From Parcubacteria bacterium C7867-006 (GTDB taxonomy: Bacteria > Patescibacteriota > Minisyncoccia > Phycocordibacterales > DATDWN01), in the NCBI GenBank assembly GCA_001189155.1, contig LFCP01000004.1, forward strand, positions 133,618 to 197,617: DNA of 64,000 bases, given 5' to 3'. The notes below the pieces were generated by a model that saw nothing but the letters and a program-made list of their open reading frames with translations, searched no databases and was not told the origin of the DNA. The position numbers and the translations under genes are program-made. Below are positions 6,805-56,230 of the stretch, piece by piece; the first letter of the stretch is position 1, and every line of letters starts with the position of its first letter.

Positions 6805-7188
6805 CTACGTGAGAAGGCGCAAGAGCTTCCTCAAACCATCGCGAAACCTCCTGCGAGTCATCCGGTCGACCGAGGTGAGTTCCTCGGGAAGTATCGTTCC
6901 GCTCACCCTCGACGAAAACGAAAAACCATGAATCCCCAGGAACCGTTCAACAGCAATGATCACTGAACGACGACACGAGCCAAGGAGTGGGTAGACCTCG
7001 ATGATCATCTTCACCTCATCCTTGGTCAGACCCTTTGCGACTCGGTAGGGACTGAAGAACATGTGAAGCACTCCAGCCTCCTTCTTGGAGAGCCGATAGC
7101 GCTTCCTGTAGCGATCCAGAACACCGTCTTGCGCGTTCCGGAGTCTTGCTTCCGAAAATTTCTTCAACTTGATCACTCGCTCCTCCAT
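6805..7188 (-). CDS. Hypothetical protein (GC-rich cassette A, downstream gene)
   Basis: 127-aa ORF in a segment of about 55% GC; it overlaps the upstream ORF by 1 nt. Confidence 0.4.
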   Translation of the reverse strand: MEERVIKLKKFSEARLRNAQDGVLDRYRKRYRLSKKEAGVLHMFFSPYRVAKGLTKDEVKMIIEVYPLLGSCRRSVIIAVERFLGIHGFSFSSRVSGTILPEELTSVDRMTRRRFRDGLRKLLRLLT

Positions 7189-7189
7189 T

Positions 7190-7540
7190 CTAGCTCTGAA
7201 TCTGCCCGACTTCAGCAGCCATGGCCTCCTCGTGTTTCCTCATCTCATCGGCTGCTGCTCGGAAGAACACCTTCAGGCCATCAGGATCCTTCTCCTCGCG
7301 AATCTCATCAGCAACCCAGGAGAGATCGCTCGACGAAAGCCCGAGATCCGGCAGAGCAGTCTTTCCGCTCTTCAGGATTTCTCTAGCTTTCTCGAAACGT
7401 TCCCTTCTCGCATGTAATTCACGACGAGCCAGCCTGAGACCTCCGGGAAGGAACTCGTTCAGGTAGGTGCGCACGGCCTTGCCCACACACATGTGAGCCA
7501 CTCCGCGAAGCAACTCATCTGTTAGTTGGTTGTCGCTCAT
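7190..7540 (-). CDS. Hypothetical protein (GC-rich cassette A, upstream gene)
   Basis: 116-aa helical ORF in GC-rich DNA. Confidence 0.4.
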   Translation of the reverse strand: MSDNQLTDELLRGVAHMCVGKAVRTYLNEFLPGGLRLARRELHARRERFEKAREILKSGKTALPDLGLSSSDLSWVADEIREEKDPDGLKVFFRAAADEMRKHEEAMAAEVGQIQS

Positions 7541-9232: not shown

Positions 9233-9508
9233 ATGAATCAGCGGGCTATCAGAAAGCTTCCATTTCCACCGGCGAGTCACTTCACATTGGAAATGGTCAG
9301 GCAGATCAAGGCAATCCCTGATGAGGAAATCAGTTACTCCGAACAAGAGATTGTCTGGATGGAACTGGCAATTCAGAATCTTGAGTACATGATTGCCTGT
9401 GCGAAATCACTCGGCATCAAGACGACCGAGATGGATGAGCACAAGGCTCTGTACGAGGCAGTCATTACCAAGAACAATAACCTGACCGCCTCAGACCGCT
9501 CACGCTAA
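9233..9508 (+). CDS. Hypothetical protein (GC-rich cassette B)
   Basis: 91-aa ORF; AAAGGA RBS 4 nt upstream; raised GC. Confidence 0.4.
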   Translation: MNQRAIRKLPFPPASHFTLEMVRQIKAIPDEEISYSEQEIVWMELAIQNLEYMIACAKSLGIKTTEMDEHKALYEAVITKNNNLTASDRSR

Positions 9509-11642: not shown

Positions 11643-12653
11643 ATGTCTACGACTGAAGGCCTAGAGGCCCCGCTCGTCACGATACTCGTCCCCTGCTATC
11701 AGTACGGACGGTATCTACGCAATTGTCTGGAAGGAATTTTCGCCCAGACAATCATCGACCAAATATCGGTTGAAATCATCGTCATCAACGATGCATCAAC
11801 CGACAACACTGACGCTGTTATGCGTGAGTTCACGGACCCGCGTATTCACTACATCCGCCACGACAGAAACCGTGGACTCTGCTACACACTGTCAGAAGGA
11901 CTCACCCTCGCAAGAGGTAAGTACTTTACTCGGATTGACGCGGACGACAGATGGAAACCTCACTTTCTGGAAGTAACACTTCCTGAGCTTGAGAGATACC
12001 CTGATGTTGCTCTCGTCTTCGGTGATGTTGCCCATGTTGATGAACAAGGAAACATCATCAACGAGGAAAGTACAATCGCTCGCTCACTTGAGGTTCACGG
12101 CGATCGTGATTTCAAGGGAGACAGATTTCTTTCACAAGTCGGCGAATGCACAATCGGCACCGCTGGTGTGATAGGAAGAACCGAAGCTTGGCGTAAGGGC
12201 CTACCTTTCCCCAAATGCTTTACTTGGGAGTCCCCGTCTGACTGGTGGCTGAACATCATGGCCATCAGAGATGCAGACGTGTACTACAAGAAGGGTATTC
12301 TTGGGGAATACCGCATGCACAGTGCGAGTATGACCCACCAACAAGGTAGTGTTGATGCGGTCGATATTGAACAGACCACCATCGGCGCTATCAATGAAGC
12401 GTTTAGCGGGGTAAATCTGAAAAGAGAACACCGCCTTGCGCGACGCATGATCTACGCCAACGCATGGACCACCCTCGGGAATATCAATTTCGAAAAAAAC
12501 CGAGGTAAAGATTCGAGGAGGTGCTACGCCAACGCAGTGCTCTGGCGACCGGACTATGTTTTAAGAAAGTCCATCGCTCGACACTTCCTGTCGAGTCTCC
12601 TGCCTCGGAAACTGTACGAGAAAATAAAGAAAGGGGTGAAGAAAATGTTCTGA
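11643..12653 (+). CDS. Family 2 glycosyltransferase (GC-rich cassette C)
   Basis: ILVPCYQ...IIVINDASTDNT...RIDADD GT2 motifs; AGGAGAG RBS 4 nt upstream; about 52% GC. Confidence 0.75.
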   Translation: MSTTEGLEAPLVTILVPCYQYGRYLRNCLEGIFAQTIIDQISVEIIVINDASTDNTDAVMREFTDPRIHYIRHDRNRGLCYTLSEGLTLARGKYFTRIDADDRWKPHFLEVTLPELERYPDVALVFGDVAHVDEQGNIINEESTIARSLEVHGDRDFKGDRFLSQVGECTIGTAGVIGRTEAWRKGLPFPKCFTWESPSDWWLNIMAIRDADVYYKKGILGEYRMHSASMTHQQGSVDAVDIEQTTIGAINEAFSGVNLKREHRLARRMIYANAWTTLGNINFEKNRGKDSRRCYANAVLWRPDYVLRKSIARHFLSSLLPRKLYEKIKKGVKKMF

Positions 12654-12697: not shown

Positions 12698-13720
12698 TTA
12701 TTTATCGCCTATTATATTTACTAAAGCAAGTTCCAATGGAAGAGAAGGTATGTATGCACCGTTTGTTTTTTCATATGCGGTTAGAAGTTCAACCAAATCA
12801 GATGAAGTTAGATTCCCCTCGCCTTTTGCTAGAGAACCAACAAACTCAAATTCTTTTTCTGACAAATCATCTTTTATGATATTTCCAGCATTAAACCGAA
12901 CAAGTAGAACCGCTCGTGCAGTGTGGAGAATAAGTTTTAAGAAAACAGACATATCTATGTTTTGACTTACTGATTTTTTAACCGCATCTAGTCCTAAATT
13001 TAAATCTTTATTAACTATTGAAAAAACTACATCATGAACCATGTCGATAGCTGGAGCTCCTGTAACAAGACGAACTTCCTCCTCACTTATAGTTTTATTT
13101 TTAGAGTATGCTAAAACTTTTTGAAGTATTCCGAGTGTATCCCGAAAAGAACCGTCACCGAGCAAAGCAATAAGCTCTGCTGATGCATCATCCACTACTG
13201 AACCTTCTTGTTTTGCAATACTGGTTACAACTTTTTTCAAAACATCTTGAGATGGTTTTTTGAATGTGTATGTTTCGCAACGGGACAAAACTGTTTCTGG
13301 AATTTTGTGAGTTTCTGTTGTAGCTAGAATAAAAACAACATGAGATGGTGGCTCCTCCAAAGTTTTGAGAAGTGCGTTTGATGCTGATTTTGAAAGCATA
13401 TGAACCTCGTCCAAAATATAAACTTTATATTTTGATTCAAAAGGCAGTGTAAAAACAGAATCATTTAGATTTCTAATATCTTCTACACTAGTGTTTGATG
13501 CCGCATCTATTTCATAAATATCATTTTTACTTGTTCCTATAGCTGCAGCAAATATTCTTGCTACAGAAGTTTTTCCCGTTCCCCGTGTTCCAGAAAAAAG
13601 GTATGCGTGGGAAATTTCTCCAGATTTTGCTTCTGCTTCTAGAACTTTAACTATGTGGTCCTGACCAACAACTTCAGAAAACTTACTTGGGCGGTATTTT
13701 CTATATAGTGCTTCTGACAT
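12698..13720 (-). CDS. dnaX: DNA polymerase III subunit gamma/tau (short form)
   Basis: GTRGTGKTS Walker A and the clamp-loader box; 340 aa. Confidence 0.85.
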   Translation of the reverse strand: MSEALYRKYRPSKFSEVVGQDHIVKVLEAEAKSGEISHAYLFSGTRGTGKTSVARIFAAAIGTSKNDIYEIDAASNTSVEDIRNLNDSVFTLPFESKYKVYILDEVHMLSKSASNALLKTLEEPPSHVVFILATTETHKIPETVLSRCETYTFKKPSQDVLKKVVTSIAKQEGSVVDDASAELIALLGDGSFRDTLGILQKVLAYSKNKTISEEEVRLVTGAPAIDMVHDVVFSIVNKDLNLGLDAVKKSVSQNIDMSVFLKLILHTARAVLLVRFNAGNIIKDDLSEKEFEFVGSLAKGEGNLTSSDLVELLTAYEKTNGAYIPSLPLELALVNIIGDK

Positions 13721-13829
13721 AGTAAATAGTATATCTTATTGTGAGTTTGAGACAAAACATATAATTAAGTAATAATTGGAAAAGTGCCTCCTGGACAGAG
13801 GCACTTTTTCGTGCAGAACGAAGAACAAA

Positions 13830-14150
13830 TTACCCCTTTCGGTGGCCGTTGTCATGGCGATTGTTATCCAGACCCAGATCGATTCGCCTGGACCGAGGCA
13901 GTCGAGGGGCCTCGGTCTGAGGATGACCAAGTGGCTTGACCTTGCTGAGCTCTTGAAGCCCAGCAAAGATCAACTTCCTGACTTCATGACGGGAGGGTTC
14001 GTGCTCGAACATCTTCTTGAACTCCCTGAACAGGAATTCGGGAGTCTCACTGACCAACTTCTTCTGACAGTCCTCGCACACTCCATAATGGCCACTGGTG
14101 AACTTCGGGTCCTCATACAAATGATTACCCTCAACACACATCAAAACCAT
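13830..14150 (-). CDS. Hypothetical protein (GC-rich cassette D; Cys/His-containing)
   Basis: Start preferred at MVLMCVEGNH with GGGGG 5 nt upstream; contains a GHYGVCEDC motif. It overlaps a plus-frame ORF judged less likely. Confidence 0.35.
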   Translation of the reverse strand: MVLMCVEGNHLYEDPKFTSGHYGVCEDCQKKLVSETPEFLFREFKKMFEHEPSRHEVRKLIFAGLQELSKVKPLGHPQTEAPRLPRSRRIDLGLDNNRHDNGHRKG

Positions 14151-14761
14151 TGGAACCCCCTCTACACAATCCTTACTTGAGAATATCATATTCAAAAAAC
14201 ATGAGTCAATTTTTTTATATAAAAAAACGAGCCGAAGCTCGATGTAAAGACCCGACTCCACCAATTATGAATCTGGCCAGGATGCAAAATTGGTGGAGTG
14301 GAACGGACTTACCTATCCGTATTACCAAAAACTAGGATAGGTCGGTTACTGATACAGACGCTAGAGATCTCCGTGACTCGCTAGCATCATATCGAAGGTG
14401 AAGGTCCGCTATCCTTCAGGGTGGGAGGACCCTGGGGATTTTTGAGCGATCACCACACAAAAACCAGTGATGTTCTACAACAACGGAGATTGTCGTCACC
14501 ACCAGTTTTCCGCTCAACAAAATACATTATTAAATAATTATTGTCAAATAAAAAAACCGTCACATTGACGGCAAATTTCAATGGCATAGTGCCCCCGTCA
14601 ATAAGGTGACGAGCCATTATTGACGGGGGCAAGAGTAACAAAGCTACTCTCTTGTGCCTGATGTGGGTGATTTCTGGTGCCCTGACGGAGTTGAGGACTA
14701 ACACTATCAACACCACACCTTCGAGGAGACATAGTACGAGAAAATAATATTTTGTCAAATT

Positions 14762-19022: not shown

Positions 19023-19268
19023 TTAAACTTTCTTGTACCTACCAACAAGTTCGGACTTGATGGCGTACACAACGCCACCATCGCCAATAGTCCGCATTGG
19101 CACAACAAACATTCTCTTCGTGCTCTCGTCATTCGGGTTGATCCTCACCTCCTCTTTCCTCTGTCTTTGAATCTCGACAGTGGTTCCAGAATACCAAACA
19201 CCGATCCAGACGAGCTCTCTCAAGCGCTCTCTGTAAACAGAGATGTCGTCGGTAAGTCTAACAATCAT
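19023..19268 (-). CDS. Hypothetical protein (GC-rich cassette E)
   Basis: 81-aa ORF with AGGAGA RBS 5 nt upstream and a TTGACA -35-like box; GC-rich. Confidence 0.35.
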   Translation of the reverse strand: MIVRLTDDISVYRERLRELVWIGVWYSGTTVEIQRQRKEEVRINPNDESTKRMFVVPMRTIGDGGVVYAIKSELVGRYKKV

Positions 19269-20233: not shown

Positions 20234-20500
20234 ATGATACTCGCACTTGAAAAAATGTTGGTCGATGTCCCGATTTCTGCTGGAGACAGACTGCAGTGGA
20301 ACAACGAAGGTAAGTTTATCACTGCTCAGGCGCAAAGTGGGAAACCACTCTACTGGCACGGCAACCAGCTGAAGAAGATGGCTAGCTGGCTGCGGAGCGA
20401 CGAACAGTTCGACAGCTATGTGATGATTCTGGCAGAAATACTGAATCTCAAGGCTGTCCTCGTTGAAGGTGAACGTCACAGGACTTATCGATTTGAGTGA
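20234..20500 (+). CDS. Hypothetical protein (GC-rich cassette F, inserted between dprA and topA)
   Basis: 88 aa; GGAGGG RBS 5 nt upstream; a GC hairpin (CGGCTCCG...CGGAGCCG) follows. Confidence 0.4.
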   Translation: MILALEKMLVDVPISAGDRLQWNNEGKFITAQAQSGKPLYWHGNQLKKMASWLRSDEQFDSYVMILAEILNLKAVLVEGERHRTYRFE

Positions 20501-28219: not shown

Positions 28220-28298
28220 ATAAAACCAATATAACATATTTTAATATAAAGTTCAGGGCCGACAAACACTAGCGCTTGTCGGACCCTGACTGCAGTCA

Positions 28299-28814
28299 TT
28301 ACCCCTTCTTCAGAACTAATCTTGGCAAATTCTGAGTAATGGGTAGAGACACAAGTGTCTTTGCTTTGTACAACCTGAAAGCTTCTTGGCGATTGCCATC
28401 AAGAAGATTCGAGATCCTTATGCCGAGTCTCGAAACAGCCTGAGGTTTCGCTTGGGTGGTCGAAGGATAGCACAGAAAGGTAGCATCGTCGTGCACAGGC
28501 TCTGCTCCATATCCAAGTGTACGCAAAGCAGTGCACAAACAGAATGCAAGCCTCTCAGCCCTAGCAAACACAGGGCTAGTTGCGTATCCAATTGGATGAA
28601 TTTCGTTCGCGAGCCAGACGATGCTGAAGTCATCTTTCAGCTTACCGTCAACCTTTCTCTTTGAGGCAACTTGCGCTGCGTTGAAGACCTTCTTCTCGAG
28701 CTTAAAATTCAGCTGGAGAGATGGTTGAAGTCGAAGCTTGTGCCACTCCTTCACTCCCACTTCAACAAACTTGTTCCATTCATCGCTACCAACTGCTCGC
28801 ACCCAGTATTTCAT
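28299..28814 (-). CDS. Hypothetical protein (GC-rich cassette G, adjacent to tRNA-Leu)
   Basis: 171-aa ORF in DNA of about 52% GC; no family recognised. Confidence 0.4.
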   Translation of the reverse strand: MKYWVRAVGSDEWNKFVEVGVKEWHKLRLQPSLQLNFKLEKKVFNAAQVASKRKVDGKLKDDFSIVWLANEIHPIGYATSPVFARAERLAFCLCTALRTLGYGAEPVHDDATFLCYPSTTQAKPQAVSRLGIRISNLLDGNRQEAFRLYKAKTLVSLPITQNLPRLVLKKG

Positions 28815-28868
28815 TTCGCAATCTCCTTGCCGAAATAACCTGTCCGTTGTACAGTTTGTCTTATTAAA

Positions 28869-29795
28869 ATGAAAAAATCAAGTTTTAAAAATAATCCAAT
28901 AAAACCTAAAATACTAGTTATCCTTGGTCCAACAGCCACAGGCAAAAGTGACCTAGCTGTTAAACTCGCTAAAAAATATAATGGTGAGATTATTTCTGCT
29001 GATTCAAGACAAGTATACAAAGGTTTAGATATCGGCACAGGAAAAATCACTAAAAAAGAGATGCTAGGGATTCCGCACTACATGCTAAACGTCATATCTC
29101 CTAAAAAAGTATTCTCTGTTTCTGATTTTCAAAAACTAGCTAATGCAAAAATAGAAGAAATAATTTCAAAAGGAAAACTCCCTATAATAGTTGGAGGAAC
29201 AGGATTCTATATTCAATCAATCGTAGATGGAATAGTTCTACCAGAAGTTCCTCCAAATAAAAAACTCAGAAAAGAATTAGAGAAAAAAAATATTGATGAG
29301 TTAGTTTTAATGCTAGAAAAAATTGATAAAGAAAGACTAAAAAATATAGATAAAAACAACCCTGTACGACTGATAAGAGCTATTGAAATAGCAGAAAAAC
29401 TTGGCTCTGTGCCAAAGATAAAAACACAAAAAAGTAACTATGATTTTATACAAATCGGTCTTAACCTCCCAGAGGGAGAAATAAAAGAAAAAATACACAA
29501 AAGACTCCTAGCAAGAATTAAAAAAGGAATGATGAAAGAAGCAGAGAAAATTCATAAAAATGGCTTATCCTGGAAACGTATGCGAGAACTAGGACTTGAG
29601 TATCGATACCTGGCAGATTTTCTGGAAAAAATAATAGACCAAAAAGAACTCATTAATAAACTAGATTCCGAGATATATCATTACAGCAAAAGACAGATGA
29701 CTTGGTTTAAAAAAGATAAAAAAATTAAATGGTTCAATCCAAAAAATTTATTAAATATAGAAAAATTTGTTAATAACTCATTGATTAATAACTAG
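28869..29795 (+). CDS. miaA: tRNA dimethylallyltransferase
   Basis: P-loop GPTATGKS and DSRQVYKGLDIGT. Confidence 0.85.
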   Translation: MKKSSFKNNPIKPKILVILGPTATGKSDLAVKLAKKYNGEIISADSRQVYKGLDIGTGKITKKEMLGIPHYMLNVISPKKVFSVSDFQKLANAKIEEIISKGKLPIIVGGTGFYIQSIVDGIVLPEVPPNKKLRKELEKKNIDELVLMLEKIDKERLKNIDKNNPVRLIRAIEIAEKLGSVPKIKTQKSNYDFIQIGLNLPEGEIKEKIHKRLLARIKKGMMKEAEKIHKNGLSWKRMRELGLEYRYLADFLEKIIDQKELINKLDSEIYHYSKRQMTWFKKDKKIKWFNPKNLLNIEKFVNNSLINN

Positions 29796-29827
29796 CAATA
29801 TAGTAAAAATAAAAAAGGAGGACCGAC

Positions 29828-29929
29828 ATGCTCGAGATCCTTGGTAAATCAGTTCTCGCTCTGGTAGCGTTCTGGCCATTCTGGGTTACTCCACTGGCGA
29901 TAGTCTTCGCCTGCAGGCGAACTCAGTAG
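29828..29929 (+). CDS. 33-aa hydrophobic peptide MLEILGKSVLALVAFWPFWVTPLAIVFACRRTQ (GC-rich mini-cassette H)
   Basis: Perfect AGGAGG RBS 6 nt upstream; GC-clamp terminator directly downstream; single TM helix. Confidence 0.35.
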   Translation: MLEILGKSVLALVAFWPFWVTPLAIVFACRRTQ

Positions 29930-29948
29930 AACGACTCCACAGTTGTAT

Positions 29949-29984
29949 GCCCCGTGACCTACCTAGGCACGGGGCACCGTTTTG
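29949..29984 (+). terminator. Intrinsic terminator GCCCCGTG...CACGGGGC-accgTTTT
   Basis: Read directly. Confidence 0.55.
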
Positions 29985-30021
29985 CCTAAAGGTAAAAAAT
30001 CCTGTAGGATTGAACAAATAA

Positions 30022-30092
30022 GGGGGGTTAGTTAAGTGGTATAACTACGGTCTCCAAAACCGTCGTCGGGAGTCCGATTCTTCCACCCCCCG
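30022..30092 (+). tRNA. tRNA-Trp (anticodon CCA)
   Basis: Acceptor GGGGGGT/ACCCCCC, anticodon loop CTCCAAA, T-arm GGGAG-TCCGATT-CTTCC. Confidence 0.75.
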
Positions 30093-30107
30093 CATATTTT
30101 TATAAAA

Positions 30108-30419: not shown

Positions 30420-30626
30420 TCAGAATTCGAAGATTGGACGCGGGATGAGGATCTGCTCTGTTCCAGCGACCCTCATAGAGATGTGCTTTTCACCACCACA
30501 GTGTCGAAAGACGACAACACCGCGAGTGTTGTCTGGGTCGTTCTGCACATAAACGACAGTGCAGTTGTTGACCTTGTCACCAACTTGAAGCGAGCTCCAC
30601 TGATCGCTGGACATCTCGTTAGACAT
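30420..30626 (-). CDS. Hypothetical protein (GC-rich cassette I, between tRNA-Tyr and rpmG)
   Basis: 68 aa starting MSNEMSSDQ; GGAGG RBS 5 nt upstream, a TTGACT box upstream and a GC hairpin terminator downstream (about 30340..30400). Confidence 0.4.
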   Translation of the reverse strand: MSNEMSSDQWSSLQVGDKVNNCTVVYVQNDPDNTRGVVVFRHCGGEKHISMRVAGTEQILIPRPIFEF

Positions 30627-30710: not shown

Positions 30711-30793
30711 TGCGTAGGGAGGGATTCGAACCCCCGTAGGCCGAAGCCGAGAGATTTACAGTCTCTTGTAATTGACCACTCTACCACCTACGC
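30711..30793 (-). tRNA. tRNA-Tyr (anticodon GTA)
   Basis: Acceptor GCGTAGG/CCTACGC, anticodon loop CTGTAAA, long variable arm, T-loop TTCGAAT. Confidence 0.75.
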
Positions 30794-31165
30794 AATCTTA
30801 TATTTAACGTATTTACTAGTCTCGATACTTATTTCATTTCTTGATTCTACTTCAGCCCATGGCAAATCATACATTTGCCCTTTTTGAGTAAAAATAAATA
30901 ACCTATCAAATGAATTTTTATCGTATTTCTTGGAATAACTGAAAGATTGATTTCCCCCTGTTATTCTGAGACCGACTTTACAGGTTTTGCTATTACTATA
31001 AAGTCCTGCGTATTTTACTTGAACTTTGGACAAAAGTCCATTTTTTTCAATTATCAAATCATAATCTCTTTTATCACCAATAGGCAAACACACTTCATAA
31101 CCAGAAGTTATATAATGTCTTATAGCATTACCAACTGCTATATCTCCTTTACTTTTGGTATTCAC
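30788..31165 (-). CDS. PD-(D/E)xK endonuclease family protein (PDDEXK_5 / group-I-intron-associated type)
   Basis: TKSKGDIAVGNAI...GYEVCLPIGDKRDYDLIIEKNG...KVQVK motif pattern; the stop overlaps the tRNA-Tyr 5' end by a few nt. Confidence 0.4.
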   Translation of the reverse strand: MNTKSKGDIAVGNAIRHYITSGYEVCLPIGDKRDYDLIIEKNGLLSKVQVKYAGLYSNSKTCKVGLRITGGNQSFSYSKKYDKNSFDRLFIFTQKGQMYDLPWAEVESRNEISIETSKYVKYKIA

Positions 31166-33941: not shown

Positions 33942-34784
33942 TTATTGAGCTTTTGAAGCCTCATTTAGAGTAGAAAGTTCCTTCTTCAAAATCGATACTG
34001 GGACGAAAACTTTTGACGCATCAGATGATAGTTTAAAACCAATTACATCTCCAGAGAGGTTGAAGGCTGGACTTCCATCTACCAAATCTTTTATAGAAAT
34101 ATCTGTATTAATTCCTGATAGATACTTTATAGTACTTGTTCCAACGCCGGATTCTTTCATATCTAAAGATATTACTCTACCAACAGCAATTGCATTTGTG
34201 TCATTACCACCCAAAGCAATAATTGTTTGTCCCAGTTTAGGATCTGAATCTCCCAGAACAGCTGGTGAAAACGGGTAAGATGTTTTATCTGTTACTTTTT
34301 CTCCTTGATTAGCTTTAAATAATATAAAATTTGTTTGTTTATCTACTCCCATAGGAATAAGAGGAAATTCTTTACCGTCACTCATTGTAACAGTATAAAC
34401 ATTACCAGCTGGGAGATATTTCCTATCAGCTGCGATAACACCGTCTTTTGTCAGAACCAAACCTATACCGTAAAAACTAACTGTACCAACATTTCCATCT
34501 TTTTCTTTTATTCTCACAATACTTTTTAGGTTTTTATTTATTGAATCAACAATCAAATCCTCTTCTTTAACAACAACAGTTGTGACCTCTTTCTGTCCAG
34601 ATGTTGTAACAGCCGCAGGAGTAACTGTCTCAATAGTTTTTTCTACAATTCTATTTATGTTTCTTGTTACTTCAATAGGAGTCTCTTGCAAAAGAGAAGT
34701 TGTCATAATTCCAGTAGCAATAGATGTAACAAAGCTAATAAGTAGAGTCAAAAGAATGATTTGATTTTTATTTAGATCTTCCAT
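33942..34784 (-). CDS. Trypsin-like (S1/HtrA-like) peptidase domain protein, membrane-anchored
   Basis: N-terminal TM plus a chymotrypsin-fold-like region; the catalytic Ser motif looks degenerate (VDGSPAF). Confidence 0.45.
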   Translation of the reverse strand: MEDLNKNQIILLTLLISFVTSIATGIMTTSLLQETPIEVTRNINRIVEKTIETVTPAAVTTSGQKEVTTVVVKEEDLIVDSINKNLKSIVRIKEKDGNVGTVSFYGIGLVLTKDGVIAADRKYLPAGNVYTVTMSDGKEFPLIPMGVDKQTNFILFKANQGEKVTDKTSYPFSPAVLGDSDPKLGQTIIALGGNDTNAIAVGRVISLDMKESGVGTSTIKYLSGINTDISIKDLVDGSPAFNLSGDVIGFKLSSDASKVFVPVSILKKELSTLNEASKAQ

Positions 34785-39494: not shown

Positions 39495-39707
39495 ATGACA
39501 CACAACGAGATTGTCACTCTGATGAGGAGCAGTCGCTCTCCAGAGGAGTGGAAAAGCAATGAGGAGAGAGTGAAAGCTCACTTCTCTGGAAGTCTACCCT
39601 CTTTCTGGTACGGACTGATCGTTCAGTCCGAGGTGGCCAAGAAAACAAAAGCTTCATGGCCAAAACCACGACCCACACAACCCAAACGGCCGAGCCTGTG
39701 CCGCTGA
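39495..39707 (+). CDS. Hypothetical protein (GC-rich cassette J)
   Basis: 70 aa; AGGAG RBS 5 nt upstream, TTGACA box upstream, terminator at 39764..39797. Confidence 0.4.
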   Translation: MTHNEIVTLMRSSRSPEEWKSNEERVKAHFSGSLPSFWYGLIVQSEVAKKTKASWPKPRPTQPKRPSLCR

Positions 39708-43502: not shown

Positions 43503-44834
43503 ATGTCTGGACTAACGATGCTGTCGCTCGTCTTGACGGCACTGTTTCTCCTCTTCGCATTCTACCAGTCGAGGCCGAGCAAAACAGCCAAACCTGAAGA
43601 AGGACAAGAGAAGAAGTCGTCAAACGAACGACACAACCTTTGGTATCACCTGGGGTTCGTCGATGACACACCGAACCTGATTCGTCAGGTCGTCGCTGGA
43701 AGCGCAAAAAGCGGCCGGCCGATCAGGTACTTTGGGAACCTGCACGACGGGGTTATTGATGAGGCCACTGGCATCATTACATCCAACCCTAACCCACCCC
43801 TCCTTTCGGAGGGTTGGTTCCTGAATTTGATCAGGAAACACTTCGGCAAACGCTGGTGTCGCATTCCGATCATCCAGCATGTGAAGCCTTTGACGATTGA
43901 CCGGGTGGTCAGCAAGGACACCAAGTCAACTGTCAACGAACTCTCCGATGAACTTGACGCCTCAACAGTCGTCAAGGAAGGTCTCTACCGACTGATTCTT
44001 CGCCCAACCCTTCACAAGGATGTTGACGCGAAGAACAACATCCGGTTTAGCGTAATCAGTTACGCTGTTCTGGAAGTGTTCGACGCCAAACCGGCGTTCA
44101 ACATCTACCCGGACAGCTACTTGATCACTGTCAGCAAACTGATCTCTGCTTATCTTTCGAAGAATACCTTCAAACTTTCGTACGATGAGTACAAAGAGCG
44201 AGGGAACTCCTTCGAAAAAGAGCAGATCGATGAGTTGAACGGCGTGCTTCTCAGTCTGGGAATTCGGTGCAAGGAACTTCGTATGGGCGACCCTGAACTC
44301 AACAAGAGTGTTCAGGAAAGCCTTGAAAAAGAAGCCAAGGCTGAACAAGAAGCCAAGGCTCAGAAACGAAAGGGTCAGGGCCAAAAAGACTACGATACTC
44401 TCGTGTCCGAAGGCCAGTCCCAAGCAATCAGGAATCTGGCTGCCGCCAAGGCATCCAGGTTCTCTGAACTCATCAACCTCTACAAGAACGAAGGCTTGAC
44501 TGGGTCTGAAGCAGTGGACAGAGCAAATGCAATGATCTCAGCCGAGTTCAACGCAGATGCTGTTCGACAGCTTCAAGGAACCTACGTCGCTTCAGGTAAC
44601 GGCGTTCAACTTGCCGTTATGGAGAGAAGACCAAGTGCAACTACAAGTTCGACTACCGAAGCTGCAGCTCAAGCAGCGCCTACTGGCAGTCAGTCAGTGG
44701 GCCAGGCCTCGGCTCAACCAGCTCAACCTGTGGCTCAAAAGCCTATGGCTCCGAGCACAACCCAGGCTGGTCAGACTCCGCATCAGAATCAAGGCAGGGG
44801 TCACAAAGACAAGGGCCGCCGCAACAAGAAATAA
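43503..44834 (+). CDS. SPFH/band-7 (stomatin/flotillin-like) membrane protein with a low-complexity A/Q/P/T-rich, basic C-terminal tail (GC-rich cassette K)
   Basis: N-terminal TM; a core resembling the SPFH domain (DVDAKNNIRFSVISYAVLEV...LGIRCKELRMGDPELNKSVQESLEKEAKAEQEAKA). Confidence 0.5.
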   Translation: MSGLTMLSLVLTALFLLFAFYQSRPSKTAKPEEGQEKKSSNERHNLWYHLGFVDDTPNLIRQVVAGSAKSGRPIRYFGNLHDGVIDEATGIITSNPNPPLLSEGWFLNLIRKHFGKRWCRIPIIQHVKPLTIDRVVSKDTKSTVNELSDELDASTVVKEGLYRLILRPTLHKDVDAKNNIRFSVISYAVLEVFDAKPAFNIYPDSYLITVSKLISAYLSKNTFKLSYDEYKERGNSFEKEQIDELNGVLLSLGIRCKELRMGDPELNKSVQESLEKEAKAEQEAKAQKRKGQGQKDYDTLVSEGQSQAIRNLAAAKASRFSELINLYKNEGLTGSEAVDRANAMISAEFNADAVRQLQGTYVASGNGVQLAVMERRPSATTSSTTEAAAQAAPTGSQSVGQASAQPAQPVAQKPMAPSTTQAGQTPHQNQGRGHKDKGRRNKK

Positions 44835-44949
44835 ACGGTCCAACACCATCGTTGCGGTCATTGCGATCATCACGCTGATTATCGCGAAGATCGCAACTAG
44901 CGTCTTCCACTTTCTGTCGGAGATTGGTCTTTGGTTCAAAGCGGAAGCT

Positions 44950-45825
44950 ATGAACTACTATCAAACTCCCAGTGGTGGACTGATTAGCAAGGTAATACTG
45001 GTGGTTCTCCCGGTTGCATCATTTGCGCTTGCGTACGTGATGTATCGGAGGAACCATCCAACTTCTCCGAGGTTCAAATATCGTAGTAGCCGAAGTTCGA
45101 AAGACTTCGCCGCTGCTGTGATGATGCCGTTTGGCCTGGCCATCGGCGTCGGAATCCTCTGGGGAGTTGTGTACTTCCTGGCTTGGGGGCCTGGAATTCT
45201 GCACTACTTCTCTTTCCCTATCTGGGGAAAAGCGGAAGCTAGGATGAGCACTCCAACCAACAGTGGCTTCGTCGACAAAAACGAAGTCCACCGTCGGACG
45301 GGAGAGTTCTGGTATTCCAACTTGCCACCGACCGAGGCCAAGGAGATGCTCGACATCGCCACGGAAGAGTCACATTTCCAGCAATTCAACACTGATGGGA
45401 GTGTCTTCACCGGCGTGGACGACCCAGCCGACACGGGCGTGATGCAAATCAACGTCCGTGAGAACCAGAAAGACCTGATAGCGTGGGGGCTCAACGTCAA
45501 CACTCTCGAAGGAAATCTGGAAGCGGCCAAAAGGCTTCGTCAGAAATACGGCACGAAGCCTTGGCAACGGACGGTGGATAAAATCAAAAACCGTCCGTCG
45601 CAGATAATCACCATCAAGGTGCCAAAGGAAGGTCGCAGTGAAAGGTTTACCCCCGACGGCAGATTCTGCCAGGGTCAAACCGATCTTCCAGTCACCGTAT
45701 GGGACGACAAAGGTAGGAGCCACCCAATGACTCCGACCAGCGTTCCAACTGTTCCGTCGTTGTGGTATGAGTACTCCACTCCAAGTGGAGGCTCACTCCC
45801 AACGATCACCATTTCATGCAGGTAA
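44950..45825 (+). CDS. Membrane-anchored lytic transglycosylase (SLT/lysozyme-like domain) (cassette K)
   Basis: Two TM helices, then ATEESHFQQFN...TGVMQINVRENQ...LEAAKRLRQKYG, which matches the ES...GLMQI...AY SLT signature. The start is uncertain because the in-frame hydrophobic stretch upstream lacks an ATG. Confidence 0.5.
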   Translation: MNYYQTPSGGLISKVILVVLPVASFALAYVMYRRNHPTSPRFKYRSSRSSKDFAAAVMMPFGLAIGVGILWGVVYFLAWGPGILHYFSFPIWGKAEARMSTPTNSGFVDKNEVHRRTGEFWYSNLPPTEAKEMLDIATEESHFQQFNTDGSVFTGVDDPADTGVMQINVRENQKDLIAWGLNVNTLEGNLEAAKRLRQKYGTKPWQRTVDKIKNRPSQIITIKVPKEGRSERFTPDGRFCQGQTDLPVTVWDDKGRSHPMTPTSVPTVPSLWYEYSTPSGGSLPTITISCR

Positions 45826-55270: not shown

Positions 55271-55591
55271 TCAATCGTTTTCGCGTTCGAACTCGTCGTC
55301 CTTATGATCCTTCCGACGCTTTTTCTCGACCGACAGTTTCTTTCGCTCGAGGATCTGGACGAGTTGTTCCGCCATCTCCTTGTGGTGTGATGGCAAACGA
55401 CTCGGCCAACTCTCAAGCCTAGAATGTACGAGAGCGATGAGCTCGTCGTGACCGGTCCGAATATCGAGCCTCATCATGAACCTCATGAAGTGGAATTCGA
55501 TACCCGTATCGATAGAAGCCGTTCGCATCTCCTTGATGAACGCCTCCGAAATCGAAAGCTCCTCGTCATCCTCAGACACTCGCTGCGCCAT
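55271..55591 (-). CDS. Hypothetical protein (GC-rich cassette L, between rpsA and pth)
   Basis: Start chosen at MAQRVSEDDEE with a GAAGGAG RBS 5 nt upstream; a TTGACT box is upstream; acidic/basic helical protein. Confidence 0.4.
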   Translation of the reverse strand: MAQRVSEDDEELSISEAFIKEMRTASIDTGIEFHFMRFMMRLDIRTGHDELIALVHSRLESWPSRLPSHHKEMAEQLVQILERKKLSVEKKRRKDHKDDEFEREND

Positions 55592-55642: not shown

Positions 55643-56230
55643 CTAATTAAATCCTGTCATTGCTTTCTCCAAACCGTCAGATACAAAAACTTCTAGAGCT
55701 TCATTCACACCCTTTGAAAGCTTCTTCAGCTCCTTTATTTCTTCGTCTTTAAACTTTCCAAGTATTACTTTTGTTACAGCATCCTCACCTTTTGGTTTCT
55801 TTATCTTTCCGCTTGGTGTTGTAGGAGAAATCCCCACTCGAACGCGAGCGAACTTTTCTGTTTTTATGCTTTTTATTATCGACTCAAGTCCCCTATGCCC
55901 TCCAGATGATTTATTAAAGGAGATTTTTGAAACTCCGAAAGGTAAATCAAGATCATCATATATCACCATCATTTTTTCTGCAGATTTTACACTAGTAACA
56001 AGAGGCTTCACTGATTTTCCAGAATTGTTCATAAAAGTTTCTGGCAGAACTAAAGTAACAGGAGTTTTACCTACTTTTACTTTTGCTACAGTTGCATTTA
56101 GTTTTTTATCTAGTTTCCATTCTGCATCCAAAGACTTTCCAAACAATTCAACAAGCATCCTACCTGTGTTATGCCTTGTTTCCTTGTATTCATCTCCAGG
56201 ATTACCTAGACCAACTATTATATATGCCAT
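55643..56230 (-). CDS. pth: Peptidyl-tRNA hydrolase
   Basis: GLGNPG...HNTG motifs. Confidence 0.85.
   Translation of the reverse strand: MAYIIVGLGNPGDEYKETRHNTGRMLVELFGKSLDAEWKLDKKLNATVAKVKVGKTPVTLVLPETFMNNSGKSVKPLVTSVKSAEKMMVIYDDLDLPFGVSKISFNKSSGGHRGLESIIKSIKTEKFARVRVGISPTTPSGKIKKPKGEDAVTKVILGKFKDEEIKELKKLSKGVNEALEVFVSDGLEKAMTGFN

Follow-up and report, generated by a model that had tools for sequence, protein, structure and literature searches.

In bacteria, larger membrane complexes can be modulated by small single-pass membrane proteins such as AcrZ, KdpF, MgtS, and CydX. Peptides of this kind of size are also found among the type I toxins, i.e., Fst (33 aa), Ldr (35 aa), TisB (29 aa), and Hok (about 50 aa). 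In trp-type attenuators, a short leader ORF that contains Trp codons precedes a GC-rich hairpin and a U-run, beside a Trp-related gene; in E. coli, trp attenuation is altered by miaA mutations.

A short GC-rich unit of Parcubacteria bacterium C7867-006 has features in common with each of these systems. It lies within a 64-kb stretch of DNA (the window; all positions given without a locus name refer to it). The encoded peptide resembles AcrZ, KdpF, MgtS, and CydX in having fewer than 50 residues, one transmembrane helix with a short charged tail to one side, a ribosome-binding site of its own, and a limited taxonomic distribution. It differs from them in having no sequence similarity (Pfam and NCBIfam gave no match) and no conserved partner gene beside the ORF, the neighbors being miaA and tRNA-Trp. 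With the type I toxins, the unit shares size, a single hydrophobic helix, a basic end, and a strong Shine-Dalgarno sequence (SD); unlike them, it showed no antisense RNA promoter in a consensus scan of either species, no paralog in the window, no family match, and no conserved SD-sequestering fold. The trp-type attenuators are matched in the order of elements and in the Trp-related neighbor; the Trp codons, however, are not tandem and only one is conserved, there is no conserved antiterminator, a separate promoter serves the downstream gene, and selection acts on the whole peptide.

Organization and composition of the unit

The C7867-006 genome is a 652-kb bin of 36% GC, the source of which is Hanford sediment (PMC4508563). 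MiaA and a GT2 glycosyltransferase encoded in the window match proteins of this genome at 100% identity. The unit itself is about 52% GC. The original prediction of an SD, a 33-codon ORF, and a single-pass peptide with a basic end between miaA and tRNA-Trp holds for every element and its position (Table 1). Likewise confirmed is its view of the unit as GC-rich and unlike the host core genes: GC content across the unit is 0.47–0.54, compared with 0.17–0.36 in the adjoining miaA sequence. In C7867-006, 226 nt separate the miaA stop from the start of tRNA-Trp, 3′ of which lie a canonical bidirectional terminator and, on the opposite strand, rpmG. The same sequence is also present on contig J055_10000067 of JGI metagenome 3300001199 and on a Logan contig.

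Table 1. Features of the unit, its neighbors, and the GC-rich islands of the window
Feature	Position	Strand	Remarks
miaA	28869-29795	+	Pfam IPPT/IPT match; upstream neighbor of the unit
Candidate promoter of the small ORF, TTGATT-N18-AAAAAT	29781-29810	+	Consensus scan, both species
Shine-Dalgarno AGGAGG	29816-29821	+	6 nt ahead of ATG; same in species B; present in L175
Spacer ACCGAC	29822-29827	+	Between AGGAGG and the ATG at 29828
Small ORF, 33 codons and TAG	29828-29929	+	Single-pass transmembrane peptide MLEILGKSVLALVAFWPFWVTPLAIVFACRRTQ
Small palindrome UUCGCCUGCAGGCGAA	29906-29921	+	In the codons for F-A-C-R-R
TAG stop of the small ORF	29927-29929	+	
GC-rich hairpin, 9-bp stem, 11-nt loop	29948-29976	+	Arms 29948-29956 and 29968-29976, 100% complementary
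Tail CCGUUUUG after the hairpin	29977-29984	+	Short U-run; 100% conserved in species B
tRNA-Trp promoter TTGCCT-N17-TAGGAT	29982-30010	+	11 nt ahead of the tRNA; identical in species B
tRNA-Trp(CCA)	30022-30093	+	Conserved downstream neighbor of the unit
Island ORF	6805-7176		In GC-rich island 6805-7540
Island ORF	9233-9508		Orphan
Island ORF, GT2	11643-12653		Family match
GC-rich island	13800-14300		Only an uncertain ORF candidate
Island ORF	19023-19268		Orphan
Island ORF	20234-20500		Orphan
Island ORF	28299-28814		Orphan
Island ORF, orf68	30420-30626	-	Orphan
Island ORF	39495-39707		Orphan
Island ORF, SPFH	43503-44834		Family match
Island ORF	44557-45825		Listed with the SPFH ORF
Island ORF	55271-55591		Orphan

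It should be noted that the arrangement AGGAGG-N6-ATG occurs once in the window against 0.37 expected and is by itself not significant, and that an ATG-initiated ORF of at least 33 codons appears in 6.9% of dinucleotide shuffles of the unit. The significance lies in the combination of features and in their conservation; no single chance test is decisive.

No second copy of the unit is present within the window. A reading as a repeat or MITE was rejected: besides being single-copy in the window, the unit has no convincing terminal inverted repeats, and the GC-rich islands are mutually dissimilar. A direct repeat, GTAAAAA, is found at both ends of the unit and is too AT-rich to be meaningful.

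Orthologs and insertion of the unit between miaA and tRNA-Trp

At least about 160 loci encoding a MiaA of 50–68% identity were gathered from genome and metagenome collections. Among the loci listed, tRNA-Trp is often the downstream neighbor of miaA; it lies on the plus strand, 19–37 nt past the miaA stop, in L003, L017, L023, L024, L025, L043, L059, and L062. Nothing like the unit occurs, among the matches listed, in loci with a MiaA at most 68% identical. The short distance between miaA and tRNA-Trp in many relatives indicates that the unit is a lineage-specific insertion of about 190 nt.

Closer relatives fall into those with and those without the unit. Loci L167-L170 and L172 (MiaA 73–77% identical) lack it and carry NUDIX and nucleotidyltransferase genes downstream of miaA. 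In a second species (species B; L171, L173, L174, L176, and L177, at least five assemblies), the unit is present at the same place and in the same synteny. This ortholog was found only through a MiaA protein search and contig look-ups. MiaA of species B is 77–78% identical to that of C7867-006, and ParB and MurA are 92% identical. The unit is matched by blastn at 69.7% over 221 nt (E = 6e-20), and the peptide by tblastn at 54.5% across all 33 residues. The species B ORF, MIETVAYTALALVVFSPFWGTMLALIVACRRPQQ, has an identical SD, 6-nt spacing, and frame, and there is no indel; with one extra codon it comprises 34 codons. A probable third species is represented by L175, a contig that stops at ...TATAGTAATAATTAAAAAGGAGGT, i.e., at the SD.

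Only in the three unit-bearing species does MiaA end in SLIN(N/K), the codons of which hold a -35-like box, TTGAT(T/A). The insertion seems to have remodeled the 3′ end of miaA (29781-29795; P0009, P0011). Some further differences between the loci were observed. ParB, MurA, and RelA are 92–94% identical between the two species and MiaA 77%, which suggests that the miaA–tRNA-Trp segment is more diverged; tRNA-Trp itself (30022-30093 vs L173:6131-6202) shows many differences, with paired changes in the acceptor and anticodon stems. Among relatives without the small ORF, NUDIX and nucleotidyltransferase genes follow miaA at L163:998-1504, L167:4948-5460, and L172:2030-2590, and in L163 the NUDIX gene, too, is GC-rich (0.52) and has an SD.

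In the public annotation of species B, a 136-aa ORF runs on the opposite strand, across the unit and tRNA-Trp (L173/L174:5896-6306, minus strand). This ORF was dismissed as spurious, as it has two stops in the window sequence and overlaps a tRNA; the antisense call hides the real 34-codon gene.

Coding potential and selection

Between C7867-006 and species B, 18 of the 33 residues are identical, most replacements retain hydrophobic residues, and the invariant motif is L-A-L-V-x-F-x-P-F-W-x-T-x-L-A-x3-A-C-R-R-x-Q. The 37 nucleotide differences are distributed over codon positions 1, 2, and 3 as 11:7:19, and nine codons contain synonymous differences alone. The resulting pS of 0.77 and pN of 0.236 give a pN/pS of 0.31 for this one species pair, with synonymous sites saturated. 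When 37 substitutions were placed at random, an identity of at least 18/33 was reached in 0.23% of trials and hydrophobicity was retained in 2%; identity, hydrophobicity, and an open frame were jointly obtained in none of 20,000 trials (probability <5e-5). The frame of the small ORF is, moreover, the only one open in both species. This conservation of the frame beyond the random trials identifies a protein-coding gene under purifying selection, as opposed to a chance ORF or a pseudogene fragment. The basis of the test is one species pair, i.e., two full-length distinct sequences and one contig ending at the SD. The prediction of a small expression unit was right: in species B, the SD, start codon, frame, and length are all retained, as are the hydrophobic core and the ACRRxQ end.

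For host genes compared between these two species, pS is 0.57–0.72 and pN 0.04–0.21. The GC-rich enzyme gene GT2, compared in the same genome pair, has a pN of 0.236 and a pN/pS of 0.35. Since its pN equals that of GT2, the small gene evolves at the pace of the other GC-rich accessory genes of the genome. Within species B, there are no differences in 311 nt, and the differences in miaA cluster at a recombination boundary, so that this comparison is uninformative.

The encoded peptide

The 33 residues form one transmembrane-grade helix and a basic end. Over 19 residues, the Kyte-Doolittle mean peaks at 2.15 in both species; 0.7% of dinucleotide shuffles attain this value. Of the features expected of a generic small membrane protein gene, a short ORF with a start and an initiation signal, a membrane-spanning segment, and, for one species pair, the signature of purifying selection on the ORF are present. 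By the positive-inside rule, the topology is probably N-out/C-in, with Cys29-Arg-Arg at the cytoplasmic face.

A phmmer search of 1.84 billion representative proteins returned the peptide itself and repetitive false matches only, and its 90% cluster is a singleton. No homolog of the unit or the peptide was found in phage and plasmid records by blastn and tblastn, nor in viral contigs by DNA search and a back-translated pattern, nor, with a profile of both peptides, in about 1 Mb of related loci translated in six frames. Pfam (E up to 10), NCBIfam, PADLOC, and PHROGs assign the peptide to no family.

The lipobox, [LVI][ASTVI][GAS]C after a hydrophobic region, has a looser variant in PROSITE. 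Read by eye, the conserved (I/L)(V/I)(F/V)-A-C motif at 29900-29926 is lipobox-like: IVFAC in the window and LIVAC roughly fit the loose pattern and would leave a "mature" part of 5–6 residues. As to the n-region of a lipoprotein, K7 is present in the window, and species B has no K or R in the first seven residues. The h-region of about 21 residues is transmembrane-like, and its length argues for a plain transmembrane helix over a lipidated peptide of 5–6 residues.

Hairpin, promoters, and RNA structure

The hairpin begins 18 nt past the stop codon and has a predicted energy of about -22 kcal/mol (z = -3.6). The stem is retained in species B, where one U-A pair is matched by C-G, a compensatory change, and the loop is different. 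The "strong terminator" of the original prediction stands as a strong and conserved hairpin and falls as a canonical terminator. The hairpin and tail were not called by the terminator scan because the stem is followed by only UUUU, starting 3 nt beyond it; for comparison, the host terminator 3′ of tRNA-Trp has GCGGUUUUUUG. The conserved tail bases overlap the -35 box of the tRNA-Trp promoter (TTGCCT, 29982-29987), an element that lies past the unit and is separate from it. This promoter accounts for the 100% conserved stretch ACCGTTTTGCCTAAAG...AATCCTGTAGGATTG. In L003, which has no unit, the corresponding promoter is TTGCTT-N17-TAGCAT, and its -35 box falls within the final codons of miaA.

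In the candidate promoter of the small ORF, TTGATT (29781-29786) falls within the last miaA codons, which encode the SLIN tail, and AAAAAT occupies 29805-29810. An alternative -10 box is TATAGT at 29799-29804, a sequence that serves as the -10 box in host genes that look leaderless. In L175, TTGATA-N18-AATAAT is found ahead of AGGAGG. As there is no terminator between miaA and the small ORF, read-through from miaA is equally possible.

The species B version of the palindrome in the ORF, GUUGCCUGCCGGCGAC, has one double change; from two sequences, its conservation is indistinguishable from that of the ACRR peptide. The remaining stem predictions, among them one in which the SD of the window sequence is paired, are not common to both species. 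Rfam gave no match over 29796-30021, either at the gathering threshold or at E up to 10.

A probable small membrane protein gene and alternative explanations

In our opinion, the unit is quite likely a real gene for a single-pass membrane peptide of 33–34 residues. It would have originated in, or entered, the interval from miaA to the tRNA-Trp promoter in the common ancestor of a small group of Parcubacteria and has been kept by purifying selection. It is carried by C7867-006, species B, and, probably, a third species, and the product is most likely a small N-out/C-in membrane protein. The gene would be transcribed by read-through from miaA or from a weak promoter overlapping the miaA stop, and its translation would depend on the SD, in contrast to the core genes of the host, which lack an SD and often look leaderless. 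The transcript may end at, or be stabilized by, the conserved GC hairpin, which might also shield the adjacent tRNA-Trp promoter. By analogy with characterized small peptides, the product may bind and modulate a larger membrane protein or the membrane itself, and the conserved helix face L10-A-L-V..F..P-F-W..T..L-A....A-C-R-R would be the candidate contact. Speaking against this explanation are the lack of homologs of the peptide in the protein, phage, plasmid, and viral collections searched, the single species pair behind the selection test, and the near-absence of SDs from host core genes (an SD-like motif is found near the start in 1 of 46), the 16S rRNA gene being located outside the window; speaking for it is the recurrence of the pattern of SD, ORF, and GC hairpin in other GC-rich islands. 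Taken alone, the peptide is one more orphan small membrane protein, and the gene is a well-supported example of those missed by gene callers.

The same features gave rise to the earlier comparison with type I toxins. Such a toxin would be a membrane-depolarizing peptide, the translation of which would be checked by an undetected antisense or nearby small RNA. Size, the single transmembrane helix, and the basic C-terminal end do resemble those of Fst, Ldr, and TisB-type toxins; the MFE fold of the window sequence pairs the SD with downstream ORF sequence, as happens in some toxin mRNAs; and a lineage-specific, compositionally odd insertion is a fitting setting. We nevertheless consider a toxin improbable. 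A scan for the antisense promoter suggested as a check returned no sigma-70-like site on the minus strand of the unit, either in the window or in species B, although a scan by consensus might miss an atypical promoter. The SD-sequestering stem is not shared by species B, the unit is single-copy in the window, Pfam, NCBIfam, PADLOC, and PHROGs show no toxin family, and the unit has been stably inherited beside housekeeping genes at a pN/pS of 0.31. The toxin interpretation is currently unsupported. Even less can be said for a decaying remnant, either an N- or C-terminal fragment of a larger foreign gene or integration junk, which we regard as extremely unlikely: the complete series of SD, ATG, ORF, and stop is conserved across a species pair with saturated synonymous sites and GC3 has been maintained, despite the non-host composition, the adjacent tRNA gene, and the lack of peptide homologs that would suit such an origin. 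Conservation of the ORF as an ORF in species B likewise excludes the fragment of a larger pseudogene named in the original prediction as the outcome that would overturn it.

Two other readings place the function in the RNA. GC-rich islands of AT-rich genomes often prove to be structured RNAs, and the unit might be a small RNA or a terminator/insulator of about 170 nt between miaA and the tRNA-Trp promoter, with an incidental ORF. Its plus strand folds with z = -3.85 against shuffles (minus strand, -1.9), and the hairpin is conserved with a compensatory change. It is the hairpin, however, that produces this z-score: for the ORF by itself, z is -0.1, no better than for shuffles, and 135-nt segments of the coding islands GT2 and SPFH reach -3 to -4.6, for which reasons the structured-RNA reading was rejected as a candidate. 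Codon-periodic substitutions, peptide conservation beyond chance, the lack of an Rfam match even at E = 10, and predicted stems that, beyond the hairpin and the small palindrome, differ between species all make a non-coding element very unlikely. Less credible still is a leader-peptide sensor, in which translation of UGG codons would be coupled to termination or read-through at the hairpin and would tune tRNA-Trp synthesis. Such a sensor would make sense of two Trp codons (29873-29875, 29882-29884) in a 33-codon ORF directly upstream of tRNA-Trp, of its placement between the gene of the tRNA-modifying enzyme MiaA and the substrate tRNA-Trp, and of a downstream hairpin with a U-run; in nascent-RNA folds of both species, moreover, the 5′ arm of the hairpin is predicted to pair with ORF sequence. 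Yet the predicted partner of the 5′ arm differs between species, being in species B a UGGGGCA stretch that contains a Trp codon. W16 and W19 are present in the window, but species B has W19 only (FSPFW). In addition, tRNA-Trp keeps its own conserved promoter downstream of the hairpin, the adjacency of miaA and tRNA-Trp is older than the insertion, and conservation extends over the entire hydrophobic helix and the ACRRxQ end, more than a simple leader would require.

Two gene classes in the genome

The small membrane protein gene marks a two-class organization of the genome, and it is in this role that it matters more. In 17 of the 46 host genes, a -10 box (TATAAT, TATACT, or TATAGT, often preceded by TGn) ends 3–10 nt ahead of the start codon, which suggests widespread leaderless mRNAs in the host. 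Examples of SD-less core genes start at or occupy 7640, 8218, 10656, 12698-13720 (minus strand), 19338, 26624, 33942-34784 (minus strand), 36050, 55643-56230 (minus strand), and 61537.

Dispersed between the core genes are about 12 GC-rich islands (GC about 0.48–0.54). Their ORFs have GGAGG, AGGAG, or AAGGAG at 4–9 nt from an ATG or GTG, and the SD count of 11 out of 11 is partly circular, the island starts having been chosen by the SD. In most islands, a GC-rich hairpin follows soon after the stop, and promoters of the TTGACA type are present in several. Family matches are limited to GT2 and SPFH, and there is no sequence similarity among the GC-rich islands of the window. The small ORF is the smallest member of this GC-rich, SD-led class.

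GC3 in the two species is 0.58/0.59 for the small ORF and 0.55/0.55 for GT2, and 0.19–0.32 for host genes. The pairs compared were 29828-29929 with L173:5939-6043 and GT2 at 11643-12653 with L178:6001-6993, with pS of 0.68–0.77. Since GC3 is kept although synonymous sites are saturated, the composition has been maintained and is not a mark of recent import. The small ORF has a pS similar to or marginally higher than that of host genes; it has been inherited since before the species split. The description of the unit as foreign therefore applies in part: it is an insertion relative to many relatives and is unlike the core genes in composition, but this composition is no sign of recent import.

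It is possible, if at present doubtful, that the unit is the minimal member of a distinct and selectively maintained class of Parcubacteria genes, which are GC-rich, SD-led, and hairpin-ended (GC3 about 0.55–0.6) and embedded among AT-rich, SD-less core genes (GC3 about 0.25). If so, composition and mode of initiation would be functional, e.g., as a second regime of translation or mRNA stability for accessory envelope and membrane genes. Alternatively, the two classes might reflect continual exchange with a GC-richer gene pool, as opposed to a one-off import. That the genome divides into GC-rich genes with an SD and AT-rich genes without one is a more interesting lead than the single peptide; a functional split would bear on how Candidate Phyla Radiation bacteria, with their reduced genomes, initiate translation and acquire genes.

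Neighboring variable slots

The slot between tRNA-Leu and miaA is hypervariable. In the window, it is occupied by orf171 (28230-28860, minus strand), a 55% identical relative of which adjoins miaA in L163-L166; other relatives have unrelated orphans of 99–165 aa in this slot. Two strains of species B are wholly different upstream of a breakpoint in the 5′ end of miaA. Analogously, both species have a GC-rich orphan with an SD in the slot upstream of rpmG, of 68 aa (orf68) and 58 aa, and no similarity is detectable between orf68 (30420-30626, minus strand) and its counterpart in the same slot (L173:6507-6683, minus strand). Adjoining tRNA-Tyr is a gene of the PD-(D/E)XK_5 family (30788-31165, minus strand; PF11645; PHROG 5018, E = 2.8e-22), which is absent from all fetched relatives and may be a remnant of a mobile or phage-derived element.
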